From the NCBI GenBank assembly GCA_964524515.1, contig CAZGEA010000001.1, positions 297,522 to 361,521 of the forward strand: 64,000 nt of DNA. The letters are read 5' to 3'. This DNA comes from an uncultured Gammaproteobacteria bacterium. Its GTDB lineage: Bacteria > Patescibacteriota > Microgenomatia > UBA8517. The notes under the pieces were generated by a model, which worked only from the letters and a program-made list of their open reading frames with translations, did not search any database and had not been told where the DNA came from. The translations under genes and the position numbers were made by a program. Shown here in pieces: positions 34,453-58,972 of the stretch (its first letter is position 1; each line of letters starts with the position of its first letter).

Positions 34453-34457
34453 ATACC

Positions 34458-38350: not shown

Positions 38351-39006
38351 TTTTTTAATTTCTTCACCTTAACTGAAACTAACATTCCTAATAAAAATCT
38401 ATCTTCATTCACAATATCAAAACCTGCATCAGTACACATCTTAACTAATAAATTCGATCTATACGACTGCAAATGACAATCATCCCAAATCTTACCTTTA
38501 AAAAACTTAGTCCAAAAAAACCATATAAACCTAAACAATAAAGTATCAGTTGGAACCAAAAATATCCCTTCTCCACCAATCTTTAAAACTCTCTTAATTT
38601 CAAGCAAGGCATCATTAGGCTTTAAAACATGTTCCAAAACTTCCAATGCAAAAACAAAATCAAAACTTTCATTTTTATATTTTAATCGATGAATATCAGC
38701 AACCTCAAACTTAAATCTTTTATCACTTTTAAAATGTTTTTTTGCCCACTTGATAGACGTCTCAAGTGCATCAATTCCAATAATCTCCTTGGCACCAGTC
38801 GAATTTGCAATTACTTCAGTAAACATTCCGTCAGCACATCCTATATCTAAAACTTTACAATTCTTCCTATACTTTATTAAATTCTTAATATGTTCAATTC
38901 TAGTTCTATGCCAAAAATTTTGACAAAAATTAGTTCTCATTGAAGAAAAATACCAATCAGGTGGAACATTTTTATGAATCTCTGCAGCTTTTTTTAAATC
39001 ATTCAT
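38347..39006 (-). CDS. class I SAM-dependent methyltransferase
   Basis: VLDIGCADGMF...IGIDAL...FDFVFALEVLEHV...VLKIGGEGIF is a class-I methyltransferase pattern. Confidence 0.8.
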   Translation of the reverse strand: MNDLKKAAEIHKNVPPDWYFSSMRTNFCQNFWHRTRIEHIKNLIKYRKNCKVLDIGCADGMFTEVIANSTGAKEIIGIDALETSIKWAKKHFKSDKRFKFEVADIHRLKYKNESFDFVFALEVLEHVLKPNDALLEIKRVLKIGGEGIFLVPTDTLLFRFIWFFWTKFFKGKIWDDCHLQSYRSNLLVKMCTDAGFDIVNEDRFLLGMLVSVKVKKLKK

Positions 39007-40523
39007 TTAATCCTTCTATATTGAATATTAATTTGTCCAAAATTTATTTGATCAATTAATTTTGATTTATAATTCTCCTCACCAACTGTTTCATCTAAAT
39101 ATCTAAGAGGAATTCCATCAAGTGGTTCAATTATTAAAAATCTAATTTTAGAATTATCAGAACTTTGATTTAGCGCAACAACTTGCCCAATTTGATCTCG
39201 TCCAACATAATTTGGAGTATATCCATAATGACTTTGCCCGTACCAATTATATAAATAAGCCCAGACTATATTTATCCAAAGAGGTGATGTTAAGCTATTT
39301 ATATCAAATTTTTCTCCATTCGAAGTTAAATAAGTATAATCAATTGCTTTTATTTGTTTTGATAAAAGCATATCTTTTTGTATTGAAAATATAGTCGAAC
39401 CTTTTTGATTCTCACGAATTATCATACTTAAACTGCCAAATAATACAAAAACAATTAGTAAAAAAGAAAATAAATAATTTTTAGATTTAATAAGTGATCC
39501 AATAAAAGATCCCAGAATTATCGATACAGCAGAACCGATTCCTACTAACAAAAATGGGGTACTAACCCCCCCAAGTGAAACAACACTTAAACTGCTAAAT
39601 AACCATGTTGACAAAAAAAGTGGCCAATAATTTGTTTTCTTTTCATTTTTATACTTAATAAGGTAAAACAAACTGCCTATTACCAAAAAAGTTCCGTAGC
39701 CTATATTTGATGCATATGAATTGTAAGATAAAACTCGTCCAATTTGATTTAAATATAAAGTTACAATATCTCCAAAACCCTTAGATGACGTAACAGCATC
39801 ACTAGTTTGAACAACTGACATTAATCCACCCAATCCTCTAAATCCAAATTTAACTTCAGATATAAGCATTGTTGAAATTCCCATCAAAAATGATATTAAA
39901 AACCAAACAATATATCTCTTTTCAATATTTTTTCTATAATATAAATACCAAATAAATCCAGGAACTATGTGGTAAAGTAAAAACACCTCAGCCTGTACCG
40001 AAAACCCTAAAGATAAACCAGCAACAATTGCACCAAATCGCAAATTCTTCTTTGAAATCACCAACCATAATCCAAAATAATATAATGCGACAGTCAATAC
40101 TCCAATTGTAGGATTTGAAAGCCAAGTTGCGTATTGTGTTGATTCAAACGAAAAAGCAAAAAACAGAGATGATAAAATTGCAGAAATTGGATCTTTTGTA
40201 AGTAAAAATGTAATTAAAAATACTATAAAAATTACAATTGAATTAATAAATGCAATTCCAATTGCAGCAACAATTGGACTACCATTTCCAAAAAAATAAA
40301 ACGGAGCAAGAACATAATAATACAAAACACCATGAAACAATCCAGGTGCAGATGATGGCGGCCCTAATATTTTTAAATGTCCCTTTGCAATTTCCGTTGC
40401 ATGAGTTGCATCCCTTGCCTGATCATACCCAAATGTTAATGCTCCATCCTTTAAAAAAAATATTCTAACAACAAAAGCTAAAATAAATAATACAAAAAGT
40501 ACAAAATAGTATTTCTTTCTCAT
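39003..40523 (-). CDS. ArnT-like (GT83-type) GT-C membrane glycosyltransferase (paralog 1)
   Basis: FGYDQARDATH occupies the first loop, the position of the DExRYAEI motif in ArnT. It is followed by GP..S..G...G..YYY. The protein is polytopic. Confidence 0.6.
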   Translation of the reverse strand: MRKKYYFVLFVLFILAFVVRIFFLKDGALTFGYDQARDATHATEIAKGHLKILGPPSSAPGLFHGVLYYYVLAPFYFFGNGSPIVAAIGIAFINSIVIFIVFLITFLLTKDPISAILSSLFFAFSFESTQYATWLSNPTIGVLTVALYYFGLWLVISKKNLRFGAIVAGLSLGFSVQAEVFLLYHIVPGFIWYLYYRKNIEKRYIVWFLISFLMGISTMLISEVKFGFRGLGGLMSVVQTSDAVTSSKGFGDIVTLYLNQIGRVLSYNSYASNIGYGTFLVIGSLFYLIKYKNEKKTNYWPLFLSTWLFSSLSVVSLGGVSTPFLLVGIGSAVSIILGSFIGSLIKSKNYLFSFLLIVFVLFGSLSMIIRENQKGSTIFSIQKDMLLSKQIKAIDYTYLTSNGEKFDINSLTSPLWINIVWAYLYNWYGQSHYGYTPNYVGRDQIGQVVALNQSSDNSKIRFLIIEPLDGIPLRYLDETVGEENYKSKLIDQINFGQINIQYRRIK

Positions 40524-41548
40524 ACTATTATTTTAGTGAATTCTTGATTAAAAGCACTAACTGAAAATCTATTTACATCATTTGAAGCTTTCTGGGAAAA
40601 TACTTTCCATAAATTATCATCCTCAATTAAATATTTTGATGCTTTAACCAGGCCCTCTATAGTCTCCCATAAATAGCCATTTTCTCCAGTTTGAATTATT
40701 TCTTTGTGACCACCTGAATTAAATAATAAAGGAACACATCCAGCTGACATTGCTTCAACTGGTGTTATTCCAAAATGTTCAACTCTCTCAGGTTGAGATT
40801 TCTCATCAATTCCAAAACCACTTGCAGACCAAAATAACTTTGCATGACCATATAAATCCTGCAACTGACTAAAACTTGGGCTTTCAAGTATTTCAATTGG
40901 ATAACCTTTTGCCATTTCGTTTAATGAATCAATAAAATCTTCACTACCAATTTCAGCTCCACCTGCAATCACCAATTTCCATCCCCGAACACCATTTCTA
41001 AACAACTCAATTGCTGACTGAATTAATATATCCTGACCTTTCCTTTGCATTAATTTAGAAAATCTTCCAACATATAAAATAGTATTTTCCTTCTTTTTCG
41101 CCTTAAATTTACTGATATCAACTGGAGGATATACCACCTTGGAATTAACATTATATTCGTGATCTATATAACTTTTTGTAAAATTTGAATTACAAACCAC
41201 CTCTTTTATTCTAAACATTTTCATTCGATTAATTAAGCTACTACCACCTACTTTTATAAATGGAACCTGAAAATGAAGAACATTAACTCTAGCTCGAAGT
41301 GTAGGTACACTACCATCTGAAACCCAAAAGCACAGATCATATCCATCACCTCTTGATGATTGATTAATAAATCTTATATTTTTAAGTGAAATTGAAAATC
41401 TTTCTTCAAGTTTACTTTTGACTTTTGGATCAATGAATTCAACATCAACTTTATAACCCAAATCGCGAGCCAGCATAGCAAAAAACATACTATACCTCTC
41501 TCCACCACCCAAACTATCTAAATATGGATTAACTATTACTGCTTTCAT
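40520..41548 (-). CDS. GT4 (group 1) glycosyltransferase
   Basis: The C-terminal FGITPVEAMSAGCVPLLFNSGGHKE is an EX7E-type motif. Confidence 0.7.
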   Translation of the reverse strand: MKAVIVNPYLDSLGGGERYSMFFAMLARDLGYKVDVEFIDPKVKSKLEERFSISLKNIRFINQSSRGDGYDLCFWVSDGSVPTLRARVNVLHFQVPFIKVGGSSLINRMKMFRIKEVVCNSNFTKSYIDHEYNVNSKVVYPPVDISKFKAKKKENTILYVGRFSKLMQRKGQDILIQSAIELFRNGVRGWKLVIAGGAEIGSEDFIDSLNEMAKGYPIEILESPSFSQLQDLYGHAKLFWSASGFGIDEKSQPERVEHFGITPVEAMSAGCVPLLFNSGGHKEIIQTGENGYLWETIEGLVKASKYLIEDDNLWKVFSQKASNDVNRFSVSAFNQEFTKIIV

Positions 41549-42320
41549 TTTTATTATTTTCTATTTGTAGTTCCCAAAGTTTAGAATAACTAACAAATCT
41601 ACTAAACATTTGAAAAACTATTTCAATAATCCCAATTGGTCCATCCAAAAAACCTAACTTCAGAATTGCCCTATACCAAAATTCACGAAATACACCAGTA
41701 AAAAATCTCATAATATTCATTTTGGGATGATTTGCATCAAACATTAATCGCGCTTCATATTCACTCCATTTATTTGTTTTTTCAATCATTGAAGTCAATG
41801 ATCTATGAGTAATATGATAAAAATAACTTTTAAGTTTTCCAGTCTTTCCCTTTATTTGTGGTTGTTCATGAAGTTCACCAGTATATTTAACAAATCTATC
41901 AACCTTAATTAATCTCATTACATAATCTGGCCACCAACCTCCCCATTTCATATCATGACCCAATAAATTATTAAGTCTGGCAATTGCATATCCAGATTTT
42001 GAATCATCGCTAAAAATAACTTTTAAAATTTCCTTTTTCAAATCTAGTGTAACTCTCTCATCTGCATCAACAAATAAAACCCAAGGAGATTTAGCTTTTG
42101 ATATTGCATAGTTTCTATAATCTGAAAAGTTTTTCCCATCAGTATACTCTATTACAGTTGATCCCTCTTTCTTTGCCAATTCACGAGTTTTATCACTTGA
42201 TCCTGTATCAACAACCAAAATTTGATCCACCCAATCAACACTCTTCAAACAAGAAGTTATCATTTTCTCTTCATTTTTTGTAATTATTATGGCTGTTATC
42301 TTATTAATTTTATGCTTCAT
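41529..42320 (-). CDS. GT2 glycosyltransferase
   Basis: ITAIIITKNEEKMI...ILVVDTGSSDKT is followed by a FVDADER segment carrying the DxD motif. ORF track start is 42380; the Met of MKHKINK at 42320 is the likely true start. Confidence 0.75.
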   Translation of the reverse strand: MKHKINKITAIIITKNEEKMITSCLKSVDWVDQILVVDTGSSDKTRELAKKEGSTVIEYTDGKNFSDYRNYAISKAKSPWVLFVDADERVTLDLKKEILKVIFSDDSKSGYAIARLNNLLGHDMKWGGWWPDYVMRLIKVDRFVKYTGELHEQPQIKGKTGKLKSYFYHITHRSLTSMIEKTNKWSEYEARLMFDANHPKMNIMRFFTGVFREFWYRAILKLGFLDGPIGIIEIVFQMFSRFVSYSKLWELQIENNKNESSNS

Positions 42321-43237: not shown

Positions 43238-43241
43238 AAAT

Positions 43242-44141: not shown

Positions 44142-44150
44142 AGTTATATT

Positions 44151-45893
44151 TTACATTTTTTCGAACCTATACAAAAGAACCTCTTCGTTTTCATATATTT
44201 TAATCAACTTTAGCTTTGCTAAATCAACATTCACATCTTGTCCTTTTATTAAATAGAGATACTCAATATTATTATTAACCAAAAACATGCTTGCTTCATT
44301 TATATTATTGCTGTTAAAAAAATCTTGCATTGCAATTTTCCTGTTTTGCCAATCAAAACCCAAAATTTCCAAATTAACCTCATCTTCCATAAAAACTTTT
44401 TTAGAAGAAAACGCAGAAACATAAGCAGTCGACTCATAAAGATACAGTGGTCTTGGAGGATTACTAATCGCCTCATCAGCCTTATATTTATCAAAAGGAT
44501 AAGTCAACACGATTCCATCAGGTAATTGCCTTAAAAACTTCAACGCACTAATCTCATTATTTGATAATTTAGCCGGCGATCTATTTGGTATATACACAGA
44601 AAATAAGGTTGAAATAGTAGTTGGAATAGTAACAATTATCATTAAAAATGATACAAAACAAATAAACACTTTAGACTTATTTTTAATTAATTGTGCAAAA
44701 TTAACTCCTGCTAATATTCCAGAAAACACAAGAGAGTAATATAAAAACTGAATTGTATTCCAAGGTGTTCCTTTTTGCACAAACAATGTTGGCAATAATA
44801 TTCCAAAAAATATTAAAATATAAAAAAATGAATTTATATATGAAAAATTTGGTTTACGGGTAAATATAAATAATCTTGTTCCAAAATTTCCAATTACAAA
44901 AATAATAAATGCTAACAAGTAACCTAAAAATAACTTTAAATAAATCCCTGATTCTTTATATGTATTGATTGCAGAAAAAAGTTTTGGCCAATAAAATCTA
45001 TCCACCGAACCCAACATATTTTCCAAAAACCAAAATGGTTTAAATATCAATATCTTTGAATCAAACCCGCTAACAGGAATAAATATCAAAATTGAAATTA
45101 AAAATGAAACAAACCACAATGCAAGTAATGATTTTTTCCTTTCTTTAACAAACTGAATTAAACCAATTAAAAAAAGTCCAATCAAAACCAAAACACCAGC
45201 ATATGATTTTATTTCAATTAACAATCCAAATAAAATTGCTGATGACCAAAAATAAATAATTTTATTTTTTTCTATATATCGATTCAAGCAAAATAGTCCA
45301 ATAAAAATAACCATTAACGAAAACGCATAAGGTGGATTAATCAAGGTTGAAACAGACTGTTGTGCCCAAAACATCGACTCGCCTCCAAGTTGCTCTCCTC
45401 TAAATAAATTAACTATCCAGCCAAAACTCCCTCCAAAATATAAAAAAAACGCAGCCCAAAAAAATTCAAACTTTGAATTCCTCCATTCCACAATAAATAA
45501 ATAGAAAAACAAAGCAATTAATACAGAAAACAAGATAGGGAAAAACTGAAAATACAAATTACTCACAGAAATTCCAGTTAGTCTATTAAGTATCGCTAAA
45601 ATCAAATCATAACCAATATGATAATTTTTAATTTTTGCGCCAGAAAAAATCTGATTATCTAAATTTAAATTCGATAAACCATTTGAAATTGCGATATGCC
45701 ATACACCATCATGTCCATTTGCACCCCAAAATCCTATTCCATAGGAGTACTCCAATCCACTTTTAACCATCGTCACACACCATGAAGCTATAGCAATTCC
45801 CAAAAAAACTAAAATAAACCAATTTAATAATTTATTTTTTGCCAAGTATTGTTTTAAAACTTTTTTTCGCATCTTCAACCAAGGACATTCCAA
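44151..45893 (-). CDS. large polytopic membrane protein, unknown (candidate glycan polymerase/GT-C)
   Basis: 580 aa with 12 or more hydrophobic helices. I see no diagnostic motif. It sits in a glycosylation context. Confidence 0.4.
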   Translation of the reverse strand: MECPWLKMRKKVLKQYLAKNKLLNWFILVFLGIAIASWCVTMVKSGLEYSYGIGFWGANGHDGVWHIAISNGLSNLNLDNQIFSGAKIKNYHIGYDLILAILNRLTGISVSNLYFQFFPILFSVLIALFFYLFIVEWRNSKFEFFWAAFFLYFGGSFGWIVNLFRGEQLGGESMFWAQQSVSTLINPPYAFSLMVIFIGLFCLNRYIEKNKIIYFWSSAILFGLLIEIKSYAGVLVLIGLFLIGLIQFVKERKKSLLALWFVSFLISILIFIPVSGFDSKILIFKPFWFLENMLGSVDRFYWPKLFSAINTYKESGIYLKLFLGYLLAFIIFVIGNFGTRLFIFTRKPNFSYINSFFYILIFFGILLPTLFVQKGTPWNTIQFLYYSLVFSGILAGVNFAQLIKNKSKVFICFVSFLMIIVTIPTTISTLFSVYIPNRSPAKLSNNEISALKFLRQLPDGIVLTYPFDKYKADEAISNPPRPLYLYESTAYVSAFSSKKVFMEDEVNLEILGFDWQNRKIAMQDFFNSNNINEASMFLVNNNIEYLYLIKGQDVNVDLAKLKLIKIYENEEVLLYRFEKM

Positions 45894-47328
45894 CTATCAC
45901 AACCATAATTACAAAATAAACAATCAAACCAACCAAACTCAATATAAATATTGTATATGCATTAACAGGAAGAAAATTTCTTAAAATAACCAATACAATT
46001 GTCATCGCCAAAGTGCCTACTAGTGGTCTTCCTATCGAATCATACAATGAAAACTTCACATAACTATGTGCAATTAATATAGCGATAAGAGAAGAGGATC
46101 CGACAATTGCATATCCTACAGATGCACCATTTACTCCAAAATAAGTTGCCAATAATGGAATCAATGCCCAAGTCAACGCAGTCCACATTATCATAAGCAA
46201 AAATGTAATTTTTATTTTCCCAATCGCGTTTAATAAATTAGTTAATTGAGTTGTCGCAGCTGCAAACATAAAATTAACGGATACAAATGTTAAAGCAAAC
46301 AAAGCAGGTTTCCACTGATAATATCTAGGAACTACTTCAACTATTAATGGAGCAACAATTACCAACCCCGATAAAGCAGGAAAAACCAAAAAACAAATAA
46401 AAAATATTGATCTTGTAACACTTCGTGCTAAATGATCTTTTGAATCCTGAAGTCTTGAAAAAGCCGGAAAAGTAACACGAGTTACCGTATCCATAAAAAA
46501 TGTTAATGGATATCTTGCAAACTTTTGAGCAGTGGCCAAATAACCAATTCCCACAGGACCCAAAATCCCTCCCAAAACCAATGTCATTCCATCATCTTTA
46601 ATCGCTGCCATTAATGTATTAATTTGATATGGAATTCCAAACTTAAATAAACCAGTTAAAGTTTTTCTAGAAAATGAAAATCCAGGTTTCCAGGGTTGAA
46701 ATGTATAAATTGCAAAAAGTCCTACGATATCTCGAACAATAACTGCAATAGTAAAACTCTTAATCCCAAATCCACGCATTGCAAAAAAGACTAAGATTAA
46801 ATAATAAATAATTTGCTCAAGTATTTGAGGAAATGCTAATTTTACAAATTCTAATTTTCTCTCCAATAAAACAGATGGAATACTTTTAAGCGATGATAAG
46901 AAAAATGACAAAGCCAATGCATATAAAAGCATAACACCATCACTATTTAGTGAATAATGTTTTGTAAAAAATGGAGTCAAAAATACAACAATCAATATAA
47001 TTGTTACTACAAGAATTTCCTGAACAAAAAATGTAGTTCTCAAATCTGTTTCAGATGGATGTTCCTTTTTCTGAACCAATGAAGCTGCTAATCCAATATC
47101 AGAAAAATAATTAAGAAAATTAATTACAGCATTTAAAATAAAAAATATACCAATTTCAGAAGGTCCCAAATATGCCCACATTAAACCTGAAGCAACTACA
47201 GCAATTATTTGTAAAAAAAATGTTCTACCAGTCAAAATCACAATTCCACGAACTGAACGCTCCTTTACAGATTCTAAAGAAATTTCCGAAGTCGGGTCTA
47301 AATGCTCATCTTGATGAAATTCTGCCAC
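45832..47328 (-). CDS. MOP-superfamily (Wzx/MurJ-like) flippase
   Basis: 498 aa with about 14 TM helices. The N-terminal cytoplasmic extension and periodic hydrophobic pattern are typical of polysaccharide biosynthesis flippases. Confidence 0.6.
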   Translation of the reverse strand: MAEFHQDEHLDPTSEISLESVKERSVRGIVILTGRTFFLQIIAVVASGLMWAYLGPSEIGIFFILNAVINFLNYFSDIGLAASLVQKKEHPSETDLRTTFFVQEILVVTIILIVVFLTPFFTKHYSLNSDGVMLLYALALSFFLSSLKSIPSVLLERKLEFVKLAFPQILEQIIYYLILVFFAMRGFGIKSFTIAVIVRDIVGLFAIYTFQPWKPGFSFSRKTLTGLFKFGIPYQINTLMAAIKDDGMTLVLGGILGPVGIGYLATAQKFARYPLTFFMDTVTRVTFPAFSRLQDSKDHLARSVTRSIFFICFLVFPALSGLVIVAPLIVEVVPRYYQWKPALFALTFVSVNFMFAAATTQLTNLLNAIGKIKITFLLMIMWTALTWALIPLLATYFGVNGASVGYAIVGSSSLIAILIAHSYVKFSLYDSIGRPLVGTLAMTIVLVILRNFLPVNAYTIFILSLVGLIVYFVIMVVIVGMSLVEDAKKSFKTILGKK

Positions 47329-47331
47329 AAA

Positions 47332-49056
47332 TTATTTTACCATGGAAGCATTAACTCTTAGATACTTAAAATAAAACATTAAAACCAAAATTAAAGTGAC
47401 TAAAGAAATAATATTACTAATCGTTCTAATTGTCGTATCATAAAATTTCACATATACACTATGCTCTCCAGGTTTTACATCTAAATACATTCTTCCCCAC
47501 TTTTCACTATCTGGAATTCTCACTTGGACTTCAACTCCATCAACAAAAACTTTCCAATTTGGAAATTGAAAAATATTAATTCTAATTTCTGAATTTTCTT
47601 TTATAACATTAACATCAAATTTTGCCCAGTTGGTTCCCTCAATTTGATTATTAATTTCCACATTTCCACTAACTTTTTCAGCCAATTGTTTTTTACCATC
47701 TCTTGGATTCTCCTTTGCAGTCTTTGGTAAATAATCCAAAATTCCAGCAGTCTTTTGCATTTCCCAGGCAACACCTGATAATTTTTCACTATCAGTAATT
47801 GGTCCCATCTTTCCAGTTTCAGGTTCAAAATATGGAAAATAAAATATCATAGACACAGCGATCAAAAATATACCAATATAAAAAATAATATTCTTTGAAA
47901 AATAATTAACAATTCCCCCAACAGAAAAAGATAACCCTAAAATCGTCAAAGTTAAAAATCTCCATGGAAATTGCACATAAGAAAGTGGTGAAAATGATTG
48001 CCAAATTGGCGTTGATTTTGAATGAGTCATAAATGCAGCAAAAACAGCACTCGAACCCATAATTAAAATTGCCAAAACTTGTGAATCAATCTTTCTGGTC
48101 TTTACTAGTCTATGAAAAACAAACAACATTAAAACTATAAAAATTAATATGTGACCAATTCCAATTTGAAGCGAAAACCCATCTAACGGTTCCCAAATAG
48201 AAGGTCCATAACCCCAATATCTATTAACAATAAGCTGCTTCAATGACAAAAAATGTGTAGAAAATTCATAATACCCTTGAATTAAAGTATCAGCATGAAC
48301 TAATTTTTGTTCAAAAACTACAGGGAGCGTAAAAAATGCTGCCAAACCAAATGCCATAAGTCCAGATATTAATAAATACAAAATGCTATCAAACGACTTA
48401 TTTTTCAATATAAAAACACCACACCACACTGCAAAAATTGGTGTAAATATCAAAACCATTAAATTATGAGAAGTTAATAACCCCACCCAAGCAAAAGCCA
48501 ATATTAAAATATTAAAATATCTTCTTTCCTTTAATTTAATAATCTTATACGAAGACCACAATATTAATGGAAAAAAAACTAAAGCCCAAGATTCGTTCAT
48601 CGCACCACGAACATAAACATCAACACTATGATAAGGTGCAAAAACATAAAAAGCCGCCGAAACCAAACCGCCAATTTTTCCAAAAAACTGCCTAGACAAT
48701 AAGTACATAAACAAACTTGAAAAAACAAAAGACAAAATAAACACCAACTTCACAGTATCAAGATATCCAAGTGGAGTAATTAATCGAACAACTAAACCAA
48801 CAACATATGGTAATTGAGGATAAAAATTATAAAGTGGGAATCCATAACCATAACCCATATCGGGCACCCATCTACAAGGAATTTGTAAATCAAAAAAACA
48901 TTTCTCAATTGAAACTTGTCTCATGACTTGTAGATCGTCATGCATATTAAAATAACCTGGTCCAATCAATTTAAATCCAGCAATAACACCAAAAAGTATT
49001 GCGATAGCCAATTGAAGATAATTCTTCTTTATAAATTGCGAAAAAATTTCAATCAC
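47332..49056 (-). CDS. polytopic membrane protein with C-terminal ectodomain and terminal TM anchor, unknown (YfhO/GT-C-like candidate)
   Basis: 574 aa. A multi-TM N-terminal half is followed by a soluble ~130-aa segment and a final hydrophobic helix. Confidence 0.4.
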   Translation of the reverse strand: MIEIFSQFIKKNYLQLAIAILFGVIAGFKLIGPGYFNMHDDLQVMRQVSIEKCFFDLQIPCRWVPDMGYGYGFPLYNFYPQLPYVVGLVVRLITPLGYLDTVKLVFILSFVFSSLFMYLLSRQFFGKIGGLVSAAFYVFAPYHSVDVYVRGAMNESWALVFFPLILWSSYKIIKLKERRYFNILILAFAWVGLLTSHNLMVLIFTPIFAVWCGVFILKNKSFDSILYLLISGLMAFGLAAFFTLPVVFEQKLVHADTLIQGYYEFSTHFLSLKQLIVNRYWGYGPSIWEPLDGFSLQIGIGHILIFIVLMLFVFHRLVKTRKIDSQVLAILIMGSSAVFAAFMTHSKSTPIWQSFSPLSYVQFPWRFLTLTILGLSFSVGGIVNYFSKNIIFYIGIFLIAVSMIFYFPYFEPETGKMGPITDSEKLSGVAWEMQKTAGILDYLPKTAKENPRDGKKQLAEKVSGNVEINNQIEGTNWAKFDVNVIKENSEIRINIFQFPNWKVFVDGVEVQVRIPDSEKWGRMYLDVKPGEHSVYVKFYDTTIRTISNIISLVTLILVLMFYFKYLRVNASMVK

Positions 49057-49082
49057 AGTGATATTATTATGCCATAAAAAAT

Positions 49083-50630
49083 TTATTTCAGTACTTCAAA
49101 AAACAAAAGATGTTCGTTTGATCCATGTTGAACATATTCACGAACAAAAGGTGGTCTTGTAGCTTTTTTATATGATGCAATTAAATTAAGTCCCAATTCT
49201 GATGGATCACCTGTATATGTAAATCTTGAATCATTAATCACCAAAAAAGTTAAATTCCCGGCATCTCTTGATTCAGCCAAGGGCTTTGGAACTTCATGAA
49301 TGTTTAATCCGATTCCAACAACAATTACTGAATTCAATTGATCTAAATACATTTGTAATCCATCAGGCAAAGTACCAAAATAACCTTCAGTTCCCACAAC
49401 TATTTGTTTATCAGGATTTTTAACATGTAGATCCTTTATATATTCTGAAATTTGTTTTATTCCATTTCCGGCAGTCCACTCTTCAAGATATCCAGACCTC
49501 TCACTTCGCGGTATTGCAGCCCTTTCAAGATCAGTCCAAAAATTAAAAATTGTTACAAAGCTTGATATCAGTAGAACCAAAACCGATATATAAAAAATAT
49601 ATTTAAAATATCTAAGATTTATTAAAATTGAATTCCCTGCCAGTATAATTAAATAAGGTATTGTAAAAAGAATATATCTTGCAGTAAAAACTTTAGCAAT
49701 CGCACTTTCCATAACAATTGGTGTAATAAAAAGAATAAACAAAAAAACATTTTCTGATATATTTCTTTTTTGTTTCAAAAATACCACCAAGGAAAAAATA
49801 GCCAATATTAATACTGGCGCAGGACCCCAAATTCTAATCCATTCAAAACTTCTATCTATTTGCGATACAAATGGATCAAGTGGAGAACTAAATAAATGCG
49901 AAATTGGATAAACGTAATCTAAATTTCTAGAATTTATTAAATTAAAATTAGGACCTAAACGTAAAATATTATACATCGCAAAAGCGATTATCGATGAAAT
50001 TAAATTTAAAACAAAAAATTGAAATCCAAATTTATAAATATTTTTTCGATCAAACGAAATAATAAAACTAAGTGGTGATAATAAAATTAAAAATATAGCT
50101 GGTGATTTTGTAAGCCAAGCAAAACCCAAACAAAATCCAGTAAAAAGTGCAGCATCAATCCTTTTTGTTTTTGCAGTAATTATAGAAAAGAAAATTGCCC
50201 ACGTTCCCCAAAAAGTAAGCATCGAATCAACCAATGCCATTCTGTCAAAAAAGACAAGAAACGGGCAAATCGATGTAATTAAAGCTGAAAAAATTGCTGC
50301 TTTTTTAGATTTAAATAACAAATAAGAAATACTAAAAACCCCCAAAATAGTACCAGTTCCAGTCATTACTGATAAAAATCTTCCAGCAAACAAAGGATCA
50401 GAAAACCTAGAAACCGCAAACATTAAAATCCACATAAAAAATGGCTGTTTTCCATCAGACAATGGCAAAAAACGAAGAGTAGGTTCATGACCCATTACTT
50501 GAGACCATCTAACATAAATAGCTTCATCAGCAAAAACAGGCAGGTAAGTTAAATTAATCGATCTAACTATAAAACCAGATACCAATAAACCAATTAAAAT
50601 AATTAATGTATAAATATAATTTTTTTTCAC
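49083..50630 (-). CDS. ArnT/PMT-like GT-C membrane glycosyltransferase (GT83/GT39-type)
   Basis: FADEAIYVRW is a first-loop DE motif. The protein is polytopic and ~515 aa. Confidence 0.7.
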   Translation of the reverse strand: MKKNYIYTLIILIGLLVSGFIVRSINLTYLPVFADEAIYVRWSQVMGHEPTLRFLPLSDGKQPFFMWILMFAVSRFSDPLFAGRFLSVMTGTGTILGVFSISYLLFKSKKAAIFSALITSICPFLVFFDRMALVDSMLTFWGTWAIFFSIITAKTKRIDAALFTGFCLGFAWLTKSPAIFLILLSPLSFIISFDRKNIYKFGFQFFVLNLISSIIAFAMYNILRLGPNFNLINSRNLDYVYPISHLFSSPLDPFVSQIDRSFEWIRIWGPAPVLILAIFSLVVFLKQKRNISENVFLFILFITPIVMESAIAKVFTARYILFTIPYLIILAGNSILINLRYFKYIFYISVLVLLISSFVTIFNFWTDLERAAIPRSERSGYLEEWTAGNGIKQISEYIKDLHVKNPDKQIVVGTEGYFGTLPDGLQMYLDQLNSVIVVGIGLNIHEVPKPLAESRDAGNLTFLVINDSRFTYTGDPSELGLNLIASYKKATRPPFVREYVQHGSNEHLLFFEVLK

Positions 50631-51379
50631 TTATATCTTCCTAATATGGCATTAATTCTAACTTGTATCAATCCACGAAGCCCAATCCAAGAATCCTTTA
50701 TTGGATTCACACGTCCCTTTACACCCTTTTCTTCCCAAAATACATCAACCTCACTTACACGAAACCCCATCTTACGCGCCAAATAAAGAACTTCTAAATC
50801 AAATCCTGCGGTAACAGTATAACCGTCAATCGATTCCATTTTATGAAGTTCCTTCATCTTGCTAAAAATTTTATTACTTGCAGTTTTTTTGAAAATTTTA
50901 AAACCACATTGTGTATCTTTATATGGCATTCTTAAAATAACAGTTCGCAAAACAACAAAACCCATTGCCATTATTTTTCTAATCAGAGGAGCCCCTTTTC
51001 TTCCAGTCCTTGAACCAATTGCAATATCACTACCCGCATCAATCATCTGTGTTAATTTTTCAATTTGATCAATTGGAGTTGCCTGATCTGTATCAGTAAA
51101 CAAAACCAAATCGCCCTTTGCCTTTAACATCCCTTCAATTACAGTACCAGCCTTACCTCTATGAGGCTCCAAAATTGGATAAAAATATTTATGTTTTTTG
51201 GCAAATTTCTGTAAAAAGTTAAACGTCTCATCAGTTGAGCCATCATCAACCAACAAAACCTCCCAATTATATTTTTGTTTCGATAAATATTGATAAACTT
51301 CATCCAATACACCTCTCTTTAAATTAGACATTTCATTATATGAAGGGACGACAACAGATAAATATATATTTTTATTCAT
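50627..51379 (-). CDS. GT2 polyprenol-phosphate glycosyltransferase (DPM1-like, soluble)
   Basis: LSVVVPSYNEMSNL...VLLVDDGSTDET has the DxD region. It is followed by the TDTDQ region. Confidence 0.8.
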   Translation of the reverse strand: MNKNIYLSVVVPSYNEMSNLKRGVLDEVYQYLSKQKYNWEVLLVDDGSTDETFNFLQKFAKKHKYFYPILEPHRGKAGTVIEGMLKAKGDLVLFTDTDQATPIDQIEKLTQMIDAGSDIAIGSRTGRKGAPLIRKIMAMGFVVLRTVILRMPYKDTQCGFKIFKKTASNKIFSKMKELHKMESIDGYTVTAGFDLEVLYLARKMGFRVSEVDVFWEEKGVKGRVNPIKDSWIGLRGLIQVRINAILGRYK

Positions 51380-51381
51380 TA

Positions 51382-52845
51382 TTAATTTGTATATCCAAAT
51401 AATGGCTCGGTCAAATTTTGATTCTCACCGCTACAACTTTGATCAATTTTTTTATTCTCATACTTTTTATAGTCAGGCAAAATCAACCCTAATGCACCAA
51501 AACTCTTATCAATTTTATCTACCATACTATGTGGAAATACAATTGTATAAACAGGACTATTACTCGCAGGCAAATTAACATGCATATTCTTAATATAAAA
51601 CAAATACCTATAACCTAAATTATATCCAGGTTGAGTAATATAAGAAATCGAAATACAAGGATATCCATGAATTTTCGAATCTTCATTTATGTAATTTACA
51701 ATCTGTTTCCTTTGAATGTAACCACTTGCATTAATAGGATGGCTTATAAATCTGAAAACACTTACAAAAGATAGAAATAAAACCAAAAATACACCTACTA
51801 ATGATAACTTTTTTCTTCCAAATAAATACAAAATAAACATAACAATAACAAGCATCCACACAAAATTTAAACTATTTAAATAATATTCCGATAAAATTTT
51901 TGAGTAATTAGCAAAAAAAGTAATCACCATTAAAATCCACCCAACCAAAACACTCGCAATATTTTTATTCAAAACTCTTTTGTAAATCAAAAAACCAAAA
52001 AATAATAAAATAATTAATGACGGTAGCCAAAAACTTACATTAAAACTTTGGCCAATAAATAAATTTGTAATATTTTTATATGCTAAATACAAAGTTCTTT
52101 CTAATTTTGTAGCATTATAAACAGTATCGCTTTGCGAAGTTGTAACTGATAAAAATAAATATCTAGATTGTAAAAAATTATTTCTCAACTCAAAAAGAAT
52201 CAATGGTAAAAGACCAAAAAGACTTGAAACAGTAAAATATAGTATAGATTTTTTAGATGGTATCTTTTTAGACAATAAAATAGAAATAAAAACCAAAGGA
52301 ATCAAAAGGATTAACCCCATATTCACATGCCAAATCAAACCAACCAATAATCCAATTAACAAATAACCAAAATTATTATTTTTAAAAATCAAATAAATAC
52401 CATAAAAAAACCAGATACAAAATAATAAAAACAATGGCTGAGTCGGTACTACTTCTCTTTCATTTATTGAAAGAAAATAACTCGTTGAATGAAAAAATGC
52501 AGCCAAATAACCAGCATCTATCGAAAAAATCTTTTTAAAGACAATATAAAAACTAAAAGTTGTTAATGCACCAAGAATTGATACTGCAAAAACTCCACCT
52601 ATTGGATCCATTCCAAACAATAAATAAAATGGGACTAAAAAATAATAAAAATAAGGTCCAATATAAATTCCAGAAGTTGATGTTTCCTGTCCTATTAATC
52701 TAAAATTCCCATGAACAATATCTTTAACAAACCAGCCAATTAAATCTTGGTCATGAGAATATAAAAAAAGATCAGGTGCACGATAAAGTCTAAAGAAAAA
52801 ACTAATTAAAACAAATATTAATATTGGTGTTATAAATTTCTTCAC
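51382..52845 (-). CDS. ArnT-like GT-C membrane glycosyltransferase (paralog 2, divergent first-loop motif HDQDLIG)
   Basis: SHDQDLIGWF...GIYIGPYFYYFLVPFYLL is colinear with 39003, 52842 and 55301. Confidence 0.55.
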   Translation of the reverse strand: MKKFITPILIFVLISFFFRLYRAPDLFLYSHDQDLIGWFVKDIVHGNFRLIGQETSTSGIYIGPYFYYFLVPFYLLFGMDPIGGVFAVSILGALTTFSFYIVFKKIFSIDAGYLAAFFHSTSYFLSINEREVVPTQPLFLLFCIWFFYGIYLIFKNNNFGYLLIGLLVGLIWHVNMGLILLIPLVFISILLSKKIPSKKSILYFTVSSLFGLLPLILFELRNNFLQSRYLFLSVTTSQSDTVYNATKLERTLYLAYKNITNLFIGQSFNVSFWLPSLIILLFFGFLIYKRVLNKNIASVLVGWILMVITFFANYSKILSEYYLNSLNFVWMLVIVMFILYLFGRKKLSLVGVFLVLFLSFVSVFRFISHPINASGYIQRKQIVNYINEDSKIHGYPCISISYITQPGYNLGYRYLFYIKNMHVNLPASNSPVYTIVFPHSMVDKIDKSFGALGLILPDYKKYENKKIDQSCSGENQNLTEPLFGYTN

Positions 52846-54332
52846 AAGCGTATTCTTCTTTGAACAATAATTCCACCAAAACGTGCTTCCTTTTCAACTT
52901 TTCCAATTCCCTCTTGTCGATTAAGCCATGTATTCAGTCTCTCAGGATGTGGCGGATCAACTTCATACAAAGTATATAAAGGACTAATAATTTCAGTTGA
53001 CGGCTCATATCCTTTCACTCTTCCTCCATACCATCTAAACAAATAATCATAAGAATGAGGAATTACTGGGGGAACATAAACATCAACAGAAAACTGCCTA
53101 AAATTTGCATCAGAATAAATCCAATCCATAGCCTTTTTTTGATTACCCAATGCAATTGTCGATTCACCGTCAAGTTTGTCTGAATATCTATTAATTGAAA
53201 GAGCAATATTGTTTCTAAAAAATGCAAAGAAAAATACTAAAACAAAAATTTTACCAAGTCTATATTTCCATATTTGACTAAGCACAATTCCAAACATAAG
53301 AATAAAAATTAAATAATATCCAGTAACATAATAATCATAAAAATTCCCTTCATTTCCTTGAAAAAATAGTATTCCCACATACAAAGTAGTTAAAAATATA
53401 ATTAAAATTCTAGATAATTTATTTTTAAGAAATTTAGGTATATTTATTAGGAAAAATAACAAAACAACAATCAACAATATGTTTTCAAGTTGCCCTCTTG
53501 ATTCAAAAATTTTATTAACAAAAACATCAATATAAAAATTAGTTCTTAATTGAATTATTTTCCAAAAATCAATTTTAAAACTTTGATCTCCAACAAAAAA
53601 TTTAAGAATATTATTTCTAAGTATTCCATCATGCCTTAAATCAAAAACTAAAAGTGGCAAAAACGTTACAAAAAAAGAAACAAAACTTAATAATAAAACT
53701 TTAATTGATGGCCTATTTTTCCAATTAAAAATTAAAAATATAAATATTGCTGGAAAATAGAAAAATTCACCAGATGAACCGAAGTGAAACAATGATGATC
53801 CTGCAATAAATCCTAAAAATATCCAATAGAAGTTGTAGCCCTTCGCAATTTTATATAGACAATAAACAAGTAAAACAGACAACAAAAACATCGGAGTTGG
53901 GTTTGAAAGCCAACGCGAAGAAAGAACAATATTAAATGAAAAAGCACCAACAGCAAGTGCAATAATTCCTGCAGCATTTCCAAACTCACGTTTTCCCAGT
54001 ATATAAACAAAAAATAAACCTAAAACTGTTAGTATTGATAAAAATACTGAGACAAAAACTGGATTACCATTACCCAAGAAATAAGCTGGAGTTATCAAAT
54101 AATAATAAAAAGGGCCCCTAAATATTCCAGCAATTCCAGTTGTCGGTCCAATTAAAAATATTTTTTTGTATTCAATTAAGTCAAAAACTACATTTGCATC
54201 TCTTCCTTGATCAAAATAAAATCCCAACACTTGATCAATTCTATATACACGAAACCACAAAGCAAAAACCAAAATGGTAATCAAAAAAAATGGAATTAAT
54301 AATTTTTTATATTCTATTTTAAATTTCTGCAT
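52842..54332 (-). CDS. ArnT-like GT-C membrane glycosyltransferase (paralog 3)
   Basis: YFDQGRDANVV...GIFRGPFYYYLITPAYFL is colinear with the other paralogs. Confidence 0.6.
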   Translation of the reverse strand: MQKFKIEYKKLLIPFFLITILVFALWFRVYRIDQVLGFYFDQGRDANVVFDLIEYKKIFLIGPTTGIAGIFRGPFYYYLITPAYFLGNGNPVFVSVFLSILTVLGLFFVYILGKREFGNAAGIIALAVGAFSFNIVLSSRWLSNPTPMFLLSVLLVYCLYKIAKGYNFYWIFLGFIAGSSLFHFGSSGEFFYFPAIFIFLIFNWKNRPSIKVLLLSFVSFFVTFLPLLVFDLRHDGILRNNILKFFVGDQSFKIDFWKIIQLRTNFYIDVFVNKIFESRGQLENILLIVVLLFFLINIPKFLKNKLSRILIIFLTTLYVGILFFQGNEGNFYDYYVTGYYLIFILMFGIVLSQIWKYRLGKIFVLVFFFAFFRNNIALSINRYSDKLDGESTIALGNQKKAMDWIYSDANFRQFSVDVYVPPVIPHSYDYLFRWYGGRVKGYEPSTEIISPLYTLYEVDPPHPERLNTWLNRQEGIGKVEKEARFGGIIVQRRIRL

Positions 54333-55291
54333 ACATTCAATATCTTATCAATTCCTTGGGAAAAATTCATATCGTAAAGTCTAGCAGCCGATGCCCACTT
54401 GTGGCCTCCGCCTCCAAGTTCAATTGCAATCTTTGAAACATCAACGCCAGTTCTCGATCTAAAACTGACAGATATAAAATTTGGTGACTCTTCAATTGCA
54501 ATAAATCCAAAATCAGTATTTTCAATACTTTGAATTAAAATATCAGCCAACTCACTTTTAGCCCCGTCAATATGACCCAATTTTTGATATTCTTCATAAT
54601 TTAATGCAGACCAAACAATCTTTTTATCTTGATCAATCTGAATTTTTTCCATTATTTTTCCCCAAAGTTTTACATGATCAAGTGAATATGATTGATATAA
54701 ACTTCTTATTATTTTATTCTTATCTGCAAACTTCATCAATTCAGCAACTACATCAAAAGTAATTTCATTTGCTTCAGGAAATCTCAAAGCTCCTGTATCC
54801 CCAATTATTCCCGTTAACAAATCTTGAGCAATTGAATTATTAATTTCAATCTTCATGTCATTAATAATAAAATAAACCAATTCGCAATTAGCAGCGATAT
54901 TAAACTTTACTAAATTAATATCTCCATACATTTCATTTGTCTCATGATGATCAATAACAATAATTGGAATATCAAAAATTGGAATATCACGCCTCCCAGT
55001 CACCCTATTCCAACCAGCAGAATCAAGAGTAATAAATAAATCAAAAGACGAATAATCAAAATTTGAATAATCTATTGTTTTCACTTTATCTGAATTTGCC
55101 AAAAATTCTAAATTACCAGGTAAATTATGTGGACAAACAATTGAAACATTTTTATTCATTTGAGTTAATAATTCATAAAATGCCAATGCAGATCCCACAG
55201 AATCAGCATCAGGACTTGCATGACAATTAACCAAAATGTTTGAAGAGTTTTTTATCTTTTCTAAAATAAGAGATGACTCGGGATAATTCAT
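54314..55291 (-). CDS. nrnA: DHH-family phosphoesterase, NrnA-type (bifunctional oligoribonuclease / pAp phosphatase)
   Basis: CHASPDADSVGSA is the DHH motif I region, and DHHETN is present. GGGGHKWA resembles a DHHA1 GGGH motif. Confidence 0.75.
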   Translation of the reverse strand: MNYPESSLILEKIKNSSNILVNCHASPDADSVGSALAFYELLTQMNKNVSIVCPHNLPGNLEFLANSDKVKTIDYSNFDYSSFDLFITLDSAGWNRVTGRRDIPIFDIPIIVIDHHETNEMYGDINLVKFNIAANCELVYFIINDMKIEINNSIAQDLLTGIIGDTGALRFPEANEITFDVVAELMKFADKNKIIRSLYQSYSLDHVKLWGKIMEKIQIDQDKKIVWSALNYEEYQKLGHIDGAKSELADILIQSIENTDFGFIAIEESPNFISVSFRSRTGVDVSKIAIELGGGGHKWASAARLYDMNFSQGIDKILNVCRNLK

Positions 55292-55300
55292 TTTATTTAG

Positions 55301-56890
55301 TTACTTTTTTGAATGAACTAATTTATAAATTGTTACCCCATACAAATCCCATTCATTTTCAATTTTGCTCCAACCAAAATTAGCAACTTCAGCTTTTGAA
55401 TTATGAGTTGGATCGCATTTAGATTTATCAAGTTCACATACAACAAATAATTGATTTGCAATTGTCTCATCTGCTTTTTGAGGATCAATTTGAACCAAAT
55501 ATGATCCATTTTTTTCCATAAAATACTGATATGCACCTTCATAATTACGCTCTGCAATAACTGCAAAATTAAAATTTTGACCGTTTGATTCTTCAATAAT
55601 TTTATTAGCTACATCAGCAGATCTTTGAAGTTGTCTATTTGGTGAATATTTAATTGGATTTTCATTCAAATTAACAATAATTAAAAAGATCAAAATGGTT
55701 AATAAAAAAATATTTCCCAACAATTTTACCTTTTTAACATGACCCAAAATTCCACCCAACAATATAAAAAGAGCAGGAGCTAAAAATCCATAATAATGGT
55801 CATATATTTCTTGCTTATAAAGGGACAATCCAACAACTCCAATTCCCAACCATATAAATAAAAATATAAATGCCTGTTTCTCCTTTGAAGTTAATTTTTG
55901 CCTATATAATCCAAATATCCATGCTAGGGCTGCTAAATATCCTACCACCAACCAACCACCAACGTATTCATTTTTTGCAGAAACCAATCTACTTGTTATT
56001 TTATCAAGCTGCGGTATAACTTTTGCAAAACCACTCCATGGTTTAATAGAAACAGTCGTTTGTCGATCAGTAAAGAATTTCTCAATTGCAGAAAAATTTC
56101 GCCAATCATGCCTTGCATCAAATATAACAAGTGGTGACATCAAAAATCCAAATATAAATATTCCCAATAAACTAAATTTCAAAATCCTAAATATTTCTTT
56201 ACTATTTTTCCTATTTTGAATTTCTTTATAAAAGACCAAAAACCAAAAAATCAAAACAACAGGTAGGATCAATAATCCTAAATAATGTGATTGCATTACA
56301 AATGCAAAACTCAAACCAACAATAGGAAGCCAAAAAACCTCTCTATTTTGCCAAAATCTCCATATTCCATAGACAGTCAAAAGTGCAAAAAATGGCATGA
56401 TATTTGGATTCCACGAAGATTTTGTATAAATAATAATAGTAGGAGCTATAGCATATAAAATTGATGCAGCAAAAGCAGCAACTCTACCAAACATATCTCG
56501 TGTGGCATACCACACCAAGAAAATTGTCAAAACTCCAAAAAAAGCAACTAATATAGAAGGGCCAATTGGAGAAAAATTAAACAATAATAAAGCAGGGGCA
56601 ATAAAATAATAATAAAGTGGCCCCAAATACATATTTCCAATTGAAGTTCCAGGGCCCACCAATATGATATCAGCATTTACCAATAATCTTCTAACAACCA
56701 AAGCATCACGACCTTCATCTCCCAAAAAAGTCATATACTCACCAATTCGATAAAATCTAAAAAAGGAACCTATTAAAATTATTCCAACTAAAAACAAAAA
56801 TTCAGTTTTATTATTTTTAATAAACGTCGTACTATTTTTAATGAAACTTTTTATTTTTTGCATTGCTAAATTTACTTTAATTTTACCCAT
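55301..56890 (-). CDS. ArnT-like GT-C membrane glycosyltransferase (paralog 4)
   Basis: LGDEGRDALVV compares with ArnT DETRYAEI. It is followed by GNMYLGPLYYYFIAPALLL. Confidence 0.65.
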   Translation of the reverse strand: MGKIKVNLAMQKIKSFIKNSTTFIKNNKTEFLFLVGIILIGSFFRFYRIGEYMTFLGDEGRDALVVRRLLVNADIILVGPGTSIGNMYLGPLYYYFIAPALLLFNFSPIGPSILVAFFGVLTIFLVWYATRDMFGRVAAFAASILYAIAPTIIIYTKSSWNPNIMPFFALLTVYGIWRFWQNREVFWLPIVGLSFAFVMQSHYLGLLILPVVLIFWFLVFYKEIQNRKNSKEIFRILKFSLLGIFIFGFLMSPLVIFDARHDWRNFSAIEKFFTDRQTTVSIKPWSGFAKVIPQLDKITSRLVSAKNEYVGGWLVVGYLAALAWIFGLYRQKLTSKEKQAFIFLFIWLGIGVVGLSLYKQEIYDHYYGFLAPALFILLGGILGHVKKVKLLGNIFLLTILIFLIIVNLNENPIKYSPNRQLQRSADVANKIIEESNGQNFNFAVIAERNYEGAYQYFMEKNGSYLVQIDPQKADETIANQLFVVCELDKSKCDPTHNSKAEVANFGWSKIENEWDLYGVTIYKLVHSKK

Positions 56891-58801: not shown

Positions 58802-58972
58802 ATGACACAGGAAAGATTAAATCTCACAGCTTGGCGTGGAAAAGAATTTCTTCTTAAACTATCAGGAAAAGAGGCAACCAGAAGGATAAAAAGATTTCAA
58901 GAAGATCAAAATCCAAAAATTAAATACGATATTGATAAAATTACTTCTTCTGTTTTGAACCCTTCCAAATAA
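58802..58972 (+). CDS. small lysine-rich hypothetical protein (56 aa), speculative
   Basis: An ATG-initiated ORF, MTQERLNLTAWRGKEFLLKLSGKEATRRIKRFQEDQNPKIKYDIDKITSSVLNPSK, lies in the 164-bp gap and overlaps the 3' end of the downstream minus-strand gene by ~30 nt. Confidence 0.2.
   Translation: MTQERLNLTAWRGKEFLLKLSGKEATRRIKRFQEDQNPKIKYDIDKITSSVLNPSK

Follow-up and report, generated by a model that had tools for sequence, protein, structure and literature searches.

Four Anciently Diverged GT-C Paralogs with Distinct Active-Site Loops in a Predicted Surface-Glycosylation Locus of a Woesebacteria-Like Bacterium

Introduction

Multi-component glycosylation systems are found in Gram-negative and Gram-positive bacteria and include arrangements that combine a soluble GT-A glycosyltransferase with a Wzx flippase and a PMT_2-type GT-C enzyme; in such systems a GT2 protein loads a sugar on polyprenyl phosphate, the flippase exports it, and the GT-C enzyme transfers it outside the membrane (PMC8035078; PMC11127046). 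Named examples are GtrA/GtrB/Gtr*, CsbB/GtcA/YfhO, GacI/J/K/L, the Lactococcus Csd pairs, and Bacillus YkcC/YkcB (PMC8035078, PMC11127046). Here we analyze four open reading frames (ORFs), designated A, B, C, and D, in a 64-kb stretch of DNA (hereafter the window; assembly GCA_964524515.1, contig CAZGEA010000001.1, positions 297,522 to 361,521) that has a GC content of 26-31% and is coding almost wholly on the minus strand. It seems likely that A-D represent four anciently diverged orthogroups of a Microgenomates-wide GT-C subfamily within the PMT_2 clan, and that they function in polyprenyl-phosphate-sugar-dependent surface glycosylation.

The locus resembles the systems named above in that a GT2 synthase-like gene lies beside a gene for a PMT_2-type GT-C enzyme, in the presence of a Wzx/GtrA flippase, and in having a DxD motif, or an altered form of it, in a loop on the outer side. 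Its soluble GT2 proteins, GT2d and GT2b, are comparable to the GacI/GacJ variant, in which a soluble GT-A enzyme needs a membrane partner, and, like PpgS of the PpgS/Rv3779 pair (whose model gives a sub-cutoff match), they are small GT2 proteins without transmembrane (TM) segments. Whereas the described multi-component systems are built on single pairs, here three to six GT-C genes and two putative GT2 synthase genes share one conserved operon, and in some genomes the GT2 is fused directly to a GT-C enzyme. The predicted system can be likened to the Gtr, CsbB-YfhO, or GacI-L type with several GT-C steps in series. A similar serial arrangement is that of mycobacterial Emb, Aft, and PimE, where several GT-C enzymes act outside the membrane on one envelope polymer and use polyprenyl-phosphate sugars. 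In contrast to the GT39 protein mannosyltransferases (PMTs; yeast Pmt1-Pmt2 and Pmt4, mycobacterial PMT), A-D lack PF02366, MIR, and PMT_4TMC, and only one of them retains the loop-1 D-E of GT39, the other three having D-Q or D-x-D. ArnT differs from A-D in having 13 TM helices rather than ~11 and an arn operon, which is absent beside A-D; identity is ~10% with no sequence-level match, E56 of ArnT is replaced by Q in A and C and is variable in B, and Y59 is replaced by D.

Four Related Paralogs Form a Separate Family

A first-pass annotation of the window had proposed that the four ORFs constitute a paralog family. Their coordinates are correct (table 1), and A-D are real, related paralogs of one family: in pairwise blastp comparisons their E values span 1e-11 to 2e-28, with identities of 25-32%, and A matches C at 3.5e-15, D at 1.3e-14, and B at 1.9e-11. 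In each protein a hexapeptide ~30-60 residues from the N-terminus is followed ~20 residues on by a block of the form G-x6-(G/N)-x3-G-x2-(Y/F)YY-x3-P, which reads GPPSSAPGLFHGVLYYYVLAP in A, GQETSTSGIYIGPYFYYFLVP in B, GPTTGIAGIFRGPFYYYLITP in C, and GPGTSIGNMYLGPLYYYFIAP in D. The consensus proposed earlier for this block, G(P/Q).TS.G...GP.YYY...P, captures a feature common to all four and is slightly too strict as worded, TS being SS in A and TG in C, GP being GV in A, and YYY being FYY in B. In a six-frame scan of the whole window, D[EQ].RDA occurs 3 times against 0.004 expected from composition, and the pattern G-x6-x-x3-G-x2-[FYW]3 occurs 4 times, always at the same N-terminal position; every occurrence of either falls within A-D.

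The window also encodes a second PMT_2 family of four paralogs, H, I, J, and K. These are classical PMT_2/PMT proteins with the canonical D-E loop motif as in ArnT, and they match one another with E = 1e-42 to 1e-69 (~30% identity) and D with just 1e-7 to 1e-8. By this measure A-D form a family separate from the PMT_2 paralogs at 28162-36684.

Fold and Topology

In keeping with the PMT_2 similarity suggested by the first-pass annotation, B, C, and D score 30.1, 37.4, and 44.4 bits, respectively, against Pfam PMT_2 (PF13231), all over its gathering threshold of 26.1 bits. A has no Pfam or NCBIfam match, and its homology to B-D rests on blastp (1e-11 to 1e-15). Among the NCBIfam models none is matched above its cutoff by A-D, D giving a weak match to TIGR03663 (Agl23-like). 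Searches of PDB sequences with the family profiles A1 and A2 retrieved no GT-C chain and no ArnT chain even at E <= 10, and nothing but insignificant AGR2 matches to the C-terminal domain (E >= 0.13); a profile-profile comparison was therefore needed for a sequence-level link to ArnT. When aligned by hhalign with the single Escherichia coli ArnT sequence (from NC_000913.3), A2 gave a weak match (probability 9.6%) in the expected register. Against alignment A4, composed of E. coli ArnT and seven classical PMT_2 paralogs of the window, the match reached 99.0% probability (E = 2.3e-18, 211 columns), with D41-Q42-G43-R44-D45-A46 of C falling on D31-E32-T33-R34-Y35-A36 of E. coli ArnT, that is, D55 onward of Cupriavidus metallidurans ArnT. 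The hexapeptide thus lies where the first-pass annotation had placed it, at the DExRYA loop.

AlphaFold2 models of B and C, built on ortholog alignments, have a predicted local distance difference test score (pLDDT) of 94.4 for B and 93.5 for C and a predicted template modeling score (pTM) of 0.92 for both. The two models are alike, with ~11 TM helices, two short helices in the first loop, a long loop of lower confidence following TM7, and ~100 C-terminal residues folded as an alpha/beta domain. Foldseek places ArnT (5f15, E = 8.9e-8) at the top of the list for C and STT3/ALG12/ArnT at the top for B, so that in the models ArnT appears as one among several equally close structural relatives of A-D. 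Taken together, the PMT_2 scores, the models, and the Foldseek matches identify A-D as GT-C-fold enzymes: there is a multi-pass core, the first extracytoplasmic loop contains two short helices, similarity extends to solved GT-C enzymes, and an invariant Asp is present in that loop right after TM1 in all four orthogroups.

The models place the motif at the head of the first loop helix, which follows immediately on TM1 (residues 40-55 in C and 31-44 in B). This helix is amphipathic and belongs to the first extracytoplasmic loop; the motif is not part of a TM helix, the location that the first-pass annotation had named as fatal to its proposal. The short inside loops are rich in K/R and contain no D/E, acidic residues being confined to the outside loops, and in Amesbacteria D is fused to an N-terminal GT2 domain that uses nucleotide sugars and must be cytoplasmic. 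Based on the charge distribution and on this fusion we infer an N-in topology with the motif loop outside. A-D would accordingly consist of a cytoplasmic N-terminus, ~11 TM helices, an extracytoplasmic two-helix first loop, and a small extracytoplasmic C-terminal alpha/beta domain. Within a known class of enzymes they make up a branch that is divergent yet otherwise unexceptional.

Loop Motifs Are Fixed within Orthogroups

Motif conservation was scored among the best 120 matches of each orthogroup. The motif of C is nearly invariant (D 120/120, Q 119/120, G 120/120, R 120/120, D 120/120), as is Y-D-Q-A-R-D-A in A (119-120/120 at each position, the Q in 120/120). The B orthogroup has a consensus of its own, H-D-x-[DE]-L-x-[GSA]-W (H 119/120, D32 120/120, D34 119/120, L35 119/120, W38 120/120), in which the position after the first Asp varies (Q96/N13/H6/G4 of 120). 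In 80 GTDB species loci all D orthologs read DEGRD[AVM] and all C orthologs DQGRDA, DEGRD[AVM] likewise holds for the D orthologs of all 39 syntenic genomes, and the B-type D-x-[DE]-L-x-x-W is kept across Woesebacteria, Amesbacteria, Daviesbacteria, and Blackburnbacteria. Because each motif is near-invariant both among these best matches and in the syntenic loci, the choice of Q or E is fixed per orthogroup, and the divergence of the motifs reads as fixed specialization, not decay.

The first-pass annotation correctly recorded that Glu is replaced by Gln in three members (DQARDA, DQDLIG, and DQGRDA) and that B is without Arg-Asp; its suggestions that these changes mark lost catalysis, or that B is a regulatory paralog, are not supported by the conservation just described or by the evolution of B. 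Of the residues invariant in A, C, and D, the R and the second D are missing from B, which retains other family-wide conserved positions, including R130, H222, Y321/Y322, and positions in the C-terminal domain. GT-C enzymes typically carry a DxD, or an altered form of it, in an outside loop (PMC8035078), and judged by sequence the conserved motif of B is a DxD of this kind. Median identity to the window protein in 41 syntenic genomes is 45% for B, as compared with 48% (C), 54% (D), 49% (G), 48% (F), and 47% (E). The Nei-Gojobori ratio of nonsynonymous to synonymous substitution rates (dN/dS) is 0.14 for B, 0.20 for C, and 0.22 for D in the closest genome pair and 0.084, 0.091, and 0.13 in the next, the ratio being informative for this one close and one near-saturated pair and the remaining pairs being saturated. 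In these two pairs B, C, and D are under purifying selection, and the relaxed selection on B that had been suspected is not seen, its ratio (0.08-0.14) lying no higher than those of C and D. Most likely the loop differences tune sugar, linkage, or acceptor specificity rather than abolish activity. Within the B-type loop HLRLIGQETS (residues 45-56), R49 and Q53 are invariant and E54 is mostly conserved, where RD-type proteins have F, P, and T; R49 and E54 possibly represent a basic/acidic pair that has moved and makes up for the lost Arg-Asp.

Homolog searches returned >1,400 relatives of C, 516 of B, and 538 of A, and all named ones belong to Woesebacteria, Microgenomates, or Patescibacteria. 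A profile of the four paralogs, searched against 1.84 billion entries, matched 13,669 cluster representatives at E <= 1e-3, of which 2,041 reached E <= 1e-30, so that the subfamily, counted in clusters at 50% identity, comprises at least 2,041. The top 150 profile matches fall into DQGRD, DEGRD, DQARD, and DxDL types. These analyses delimit a large PMT_2 group with four stable variants of the active-site loop, and they correct a tempting misreading in which the motif divergence of paralogs is taken for decay. In public records the relatives are named "glycosyltransferase family 39 protein" or "ArnT family glycosyltransferase," names that are clan-level labels only, and our search of the literature on Candidate Phyla Radiation (CPR)/Patescibacteria together with GT-C, ArnT, or mannosyltransferase found nothing on this family. 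A-D thus belong to a large, generically annotated family, a divergent group of a known kind of enzyme in a known type of pathway. The host is a tiny-celled, Woesebacteria-like groundwater bacterium. To our knowledge, the cell envelope of the CPR is almost unstudied, and a striking share of a very small genome is given here to surface glycosylation, with ~12 GT-C-type enzymes in the 64-kb window. Many GTDB records that carry this Microgenomates-type operon (loci L006, L012, L015, L017, and more) are titled "uncultured Gammaproteobacteria bacterium," which looks like a placeholder or a mislabel.

A Conserved Operon with Putative Donor Synthases

Genomes of Woesebacteria and Amesbacteria, ~40 in all, share the gene order GT2d-D-(DHH)-C-B-GT2b-G-F-Wzx-E. 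Spacing between the genes is tight, and the GTGA at the junction of C and B combines the stop codon of the former with the start codon of the latter. Among PDB sequences GT2d best matches GtrB (5ekp) and ArnC, and its top NCBIfam models are ArnC, PgfS, the haloarchaeal dolichyl-phosphate hexose transferase, and PpgS, all under cutoff. GT2b, whose position between B and G is kept in syntenic loci, best matches the Pyrococcus dolichol-phosphate mannose synthase 5mlz (3e-17), followed by ArnC and GtrB; its best NCBIfam match is a sub-threshold one to PgfS, and other GT2 families also match both proteins. No TM segment was detected in either.

In the window the GT2d and D genes are unfused and overlap by 19 nt (56872-56890). 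They are fused in three Amesbacteria loci (L031:6292-8493, L034:1971-4202, and L040:6276-8471) and in at least four other cluster representatives (P0373, P0383, P0472, and P0495), the products being ~730 aa long and keeping DEGRDA/V. GT2d is therefore likely the donor supplier for D, a testable pairing of donor synthase and transferase that the natural fusions support.

Of the remaining operon genes, G encodes a classical GT-C enzyme whose D-E (ADEAIY) is invariant with ArnT in alignment A4, and E and F may be further GT-C-like transferases or polymerases. The F ortholog in locus L001 has a faint PTPS_related match. The DHH phosphoesterase gene is missing from ~half of the syntenic loci, which marks it as a probable passenger outside the pathway. 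A GT2-GtrA protein with orthologs in L001 and L002 is encoded next to the operon and is a candidate for a further polyprenyl-phosphate sugar synthase/flippase module. A itself is separated from the D-C-B block by 11 kb and has a GT1 gene on one side and a methyltransferase (MT) gene on the other; the order GT1-A-MT recurs in L028, GT1-A in L037, and A-MT in L069 and L070.

Proposed Pathway and Alternatives

We propose the following pathway. At the cytoplasmic face the soluble GT2 proteins would move sugar from a nucleotide sugar to undecaprenyl or another polyprenyl phosphate, with GT2d serving D and GT2b serving B and/or C and G. The lipid-linked sugar would then be flipped by the Wzx protein of the operon and/or the nearby GtrA-domain protein, and each GT-C enzyme, working outside the membrane in a division of labor, would pass its sugar to a defined position on an acceptor other than lipid A. 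As acceptor we envisage either a surface glycopolymer assembled by the products of the surrounding GT2/GT1/Wzx genes or a glycoprotein of the cell surface; decoration of such a polymer or protein is the most likely role of A-D. As in multi-component systems, proteins similar to GtrB, ArnC, and dolichol-phosphate mannose synthase (GT2d and GT2b) flank D-C-B in ~40 genomes, an arrangement that, with the GT2d-D fusions, is consistent with the use of a polyprenyl-phosphate-linked donor by A-D on the outer face of the membrane. Homology provides two candidate flippases (Wzx and the GtrA_DPMS_TM protein). D55/E56 of ArnT and D77/E78 of Pmt1 form the active site (PMC7801869). At the head of the first loop helix stands an invariant Asp (A, D34; B, D32; C, D41; D, D58) that corresponds to D55 of ArnT and D77 of Pmt1 and is likely a catalytic or acceptor-activating residue. 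What comes behind it is fixed differently in each orthogroup, as Q-A-R-D (A), x-[DE]-L (B), Q-G-R-D (C), or E-G-R-D (D).

Several observations weigh against this proposal. In ArnT, E84/K85 contact metal and phosphate and D158 contacts the sugar (PMC7801869). Opposite the YFEKP of ArnT, the alignment has L-F-H-G-V for A, I-Y-I-G-P for B, I-F-R-G-P for C, and M-Y-L-G-P for D, which places an invariant Gly at K85 and R/I/H/L at E84, and the L-D-P that contains D158 aligns to N-P-T or V-P-T. Because the lipid-phosphate, metal, and sugar residues are not conserved, the donor-binding chemistry is not transferable from ArnT. GT2d and GT2b score far under every NCBIfam equivalog cutoff, so that their polyprenyl-phosphate specificity rests on best-match similarity, size, and fusion. 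An initiating phosphoglycosyltransferase was not recognized among the ORFs of the window, and the second pair used for dN/dS has a dS of ~2, near saturation.

What, then, is the relationship of A-D to ArnT, and what is their acceptor? If A-D were true ArnT orthologs, they would transfer aminoarabinose to lipid A or to a molecule resembling it. ArnT does top the Foldseek list for C, the D-x-x-R-x-A core of DExRYA is kept, and some sources label relatives "ArnT family glycosyltransferase." The full loop-1 signature, DExRYA (D55, E56, and R58 in C. metallidurans ArnT) with YFEKP after it, is, however, not present: D, R, and A are retained, E is found in D alone, and Y is replaced by D. Furthermore, alignment to A4 shows that A-D have no counterpart of an Arg (E. 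coli R84) kept in every classical paralog, A-D do not match the ArnT equivalog NF009784 (cutoff 567 bits), the family profiles have no sequence match to ArnT structures, the equivalent of D158 is not acidic, and, with the E. coli arn locus for comparison, no homologs of ArnA, ArnB, or ArnD were recognized among the window ORFs. The relatives are limited to Microgenomates-type genomes, and we know of no synthesis of lipid A or lipopolysaccharide in the CPR lineage. The invariant Gly in place of the YFEKP Lys, the missing match to the ArnT model, and the missing arn operon show that A-D, which are ArnT-like at the level of fold and clan, are not ArnT orthologs; orthology to ArnT is effectively refuted. 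An acceptor other than lipid A, as the first-pass annotation presumed, is reasonable given that the closest relatives are all from Woesebacteria/Microgenomates and that ArnT-specific features are missing. The idea that A-D are PMT-like protein O-glycosyltransferases acting on secreted, S-layer, or pilin proteins, rather than enzymes that modify glycans, differs from our proposal over the acceptor only. This reading is on balance rather unlikely, as PF02366, MIR, and PMT_4TMC are absent from A-D (Pfam, E <= 0.1), as structural similarity is equally high to the lipid/glycan-directed ArnT and ALG12, and as the surrounding 60-kb cluster of ~16 GT2 and 4 GT1/GT4 proteins, two Wzx proteins, and sugar-modifying enzymes is typical of polysaccharide assembly.

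The remaining alternatives concern B and its neighbors. B could be catalytically dead, with a regulatory or scaffolding role, perhaps as a non-catalytic partner of C: the R and second D are gone, the GTGA overlap couples its translation to that of C, a DxDL-type gene directly adjoins a same-strand RD-type gene in 44/91 cases, and GT-C heteromers such as Pmt1-Pmt2 (6p25) and EmbA-EmbB (7bvf) are known. We nevertheless regard a dead B as distinctly improbable. Its H-D-x-[DE]-L-x-x-W is kept in 119-120/120 orthologs and across four Microgenomates groups, the first Asp, which is the sole residue universal to GT-C enzymes, is retained and forms a DxD (PMC8035078; PMC7801869), the family-wide positions, those of the C-terminal domain included, are kept, and B matches C and D in both divergence and dN/dS. 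That B should be an obligate partner is unlikely because 23/91 DxDL-type genes have no RD-type gene within 5 kb, both counts being lower bounds since the motif pattern missed some RD-type genes; we rejected an obligate B-C heterodimer, as adjacency holds in Woesebacteria/Amesbacteria and fails in a DxDL subgroup of other Microgenomates. A bolder extension of the proposal, which we consider improbable as well, if slightly less so, is that the operon forms an extracytoplasmic assembly line of up to six GT-C-type enzymes building, and not just decorating, a lineage-specific envelope glycopolymer, in which C and B form a heteromer and GT2d docks on D. Such a line would be analogous to mycobacterial arabinan synthesis, and a C-B pair with two different active-site loops would be analogous to Pmt1-Pmt2 or EmbA-EmbB. 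The natural GT2d-D fusions suggest docking for direct handover of the lipid-linked sugar, and these fusions and the adjacency in 44/91 cases are the circumstantial basis for heteromer and docking.

Table 1. Coordinates of A-D, their motifs, and other features of the window
Feature	Coordinates	Strand	Size or position	Remarks
A: GT-C glycosyltransferase, DQARDA type	39003-40523	minus	506 aa	
B: GT-C glycosyltransferase, DxDL type (DQDLIG)	51382-52845	minus	487 aa	
C: GT-C glycosyltransferase, DQGRDA type	52842-54332	minus	496 aa	
D: GT-C glycosyltransferase, DEGRDA type	55301-56890	minus	529 aa	
A motif DQARDA	40407-40424	minus	aa 34-39	
B motif DQDLIG	52735-52752	minus	aa 32-37	
C motif DQGRDA	54195-54212	minus	aa 41-46	
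D motif DEGRDA	56702-56719	minus	aa 58-63	
GT2d: short soluble GT2, putative polyprenyl-phosphate sugar synthase	56872-57576	minus	234 aa	
GT2b: short soluble GT2, putative polyprenyl-phosphate sugar synthase	50627-51379	minus	250 aa	between B and G
DHH/DHHA1 phosphoesterase (NrnA-like)	54314-55291	minus		between D and C; in ~half of syntenic loci
G: classical PMT_2/PMT GT-C enzyme, D-E motif	49083-50630	minus		PMT_2 43.5, PMT 34.1 bits
F: multi-pass membrane protein	47332-49056	minus		PMT_2 24 bits, below cutoff; synteny
Wzx-type flippase (Polysacc_synt_3)	45832-47328	minus		176.7 bits; conserved in operon
E: multi-pass membrane protein	44151-45893	minus		operon end; no Pfam match; synteny
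GT2 + GtrA/DPMS TM domain	58941-60095	minus		PF00535 97.8, PF04138 53.5 bits
H: PMT_2 paralog	28162-29832			
I: PMT_2 paralog	29795-31498			
J: PMT_2 paralog	31501-33150			
K: PMT_2 paralog	34972-36684			
Unannotated ORF	33157-34452		431 aa	among H-K
DedA/VTT-domain protein	34458-34997			among H-K
ORF	57602-58777	plus	391 aa	no Pfam/NCBIfam match
Yip1-domain membrane protein	60100-60663			
TrmD	60691-61392	plus		
CAP-domain protein	62048-62962			
Discoidin-domain protein	844-3465		873 aa	
B12-radical SAM enzyme	9433-11088	plus		
PglF-like dehydratase	16347-17771			
Epimerase	18883-19728			
Polysaccharide deacetylase	20511-21314	plus		
Wzx flippase	23812-25083			

Other Features of the Window

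The whole window (1-64000) is one glycan-biosynthesis super-cluster. In addition to the GT2 and GT1/GT4 proteins counted above, it holds ~12 PMT_2-type or related multi-pass membrane proteins, two Wzx flippases, several S-adenosylmethionine (SAM) methyltransferases, a B12-radical SAM enzyme, a PglF-like dehydratase, an epimerase, and a polysaccharide deacetylase. A DedA/VTT-domain protein and an unannotated ORF are embedded among the paralogs H-K. Upstream of GT2d lies a 391-aa ORF that is divergent from the operon, and loci L001, L002, and L003 have an unannotated ORF of 380-382 aa in the same position and orientation; a gene for a CAP-domain (cysteine-rich secretory) protein adjoins the cluster, near those for TrmD and a Yip1-domain membrane protein. 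Near the start of the window, an 873-aa protein with a weak blastp link to the classical PMT_2 paralogs carries a C-terminal F5/8 type C (discoidin, galactose-binding-like) domain, which makes it a possible GT-C enzyme with a carbohydrate-binding module of its own.

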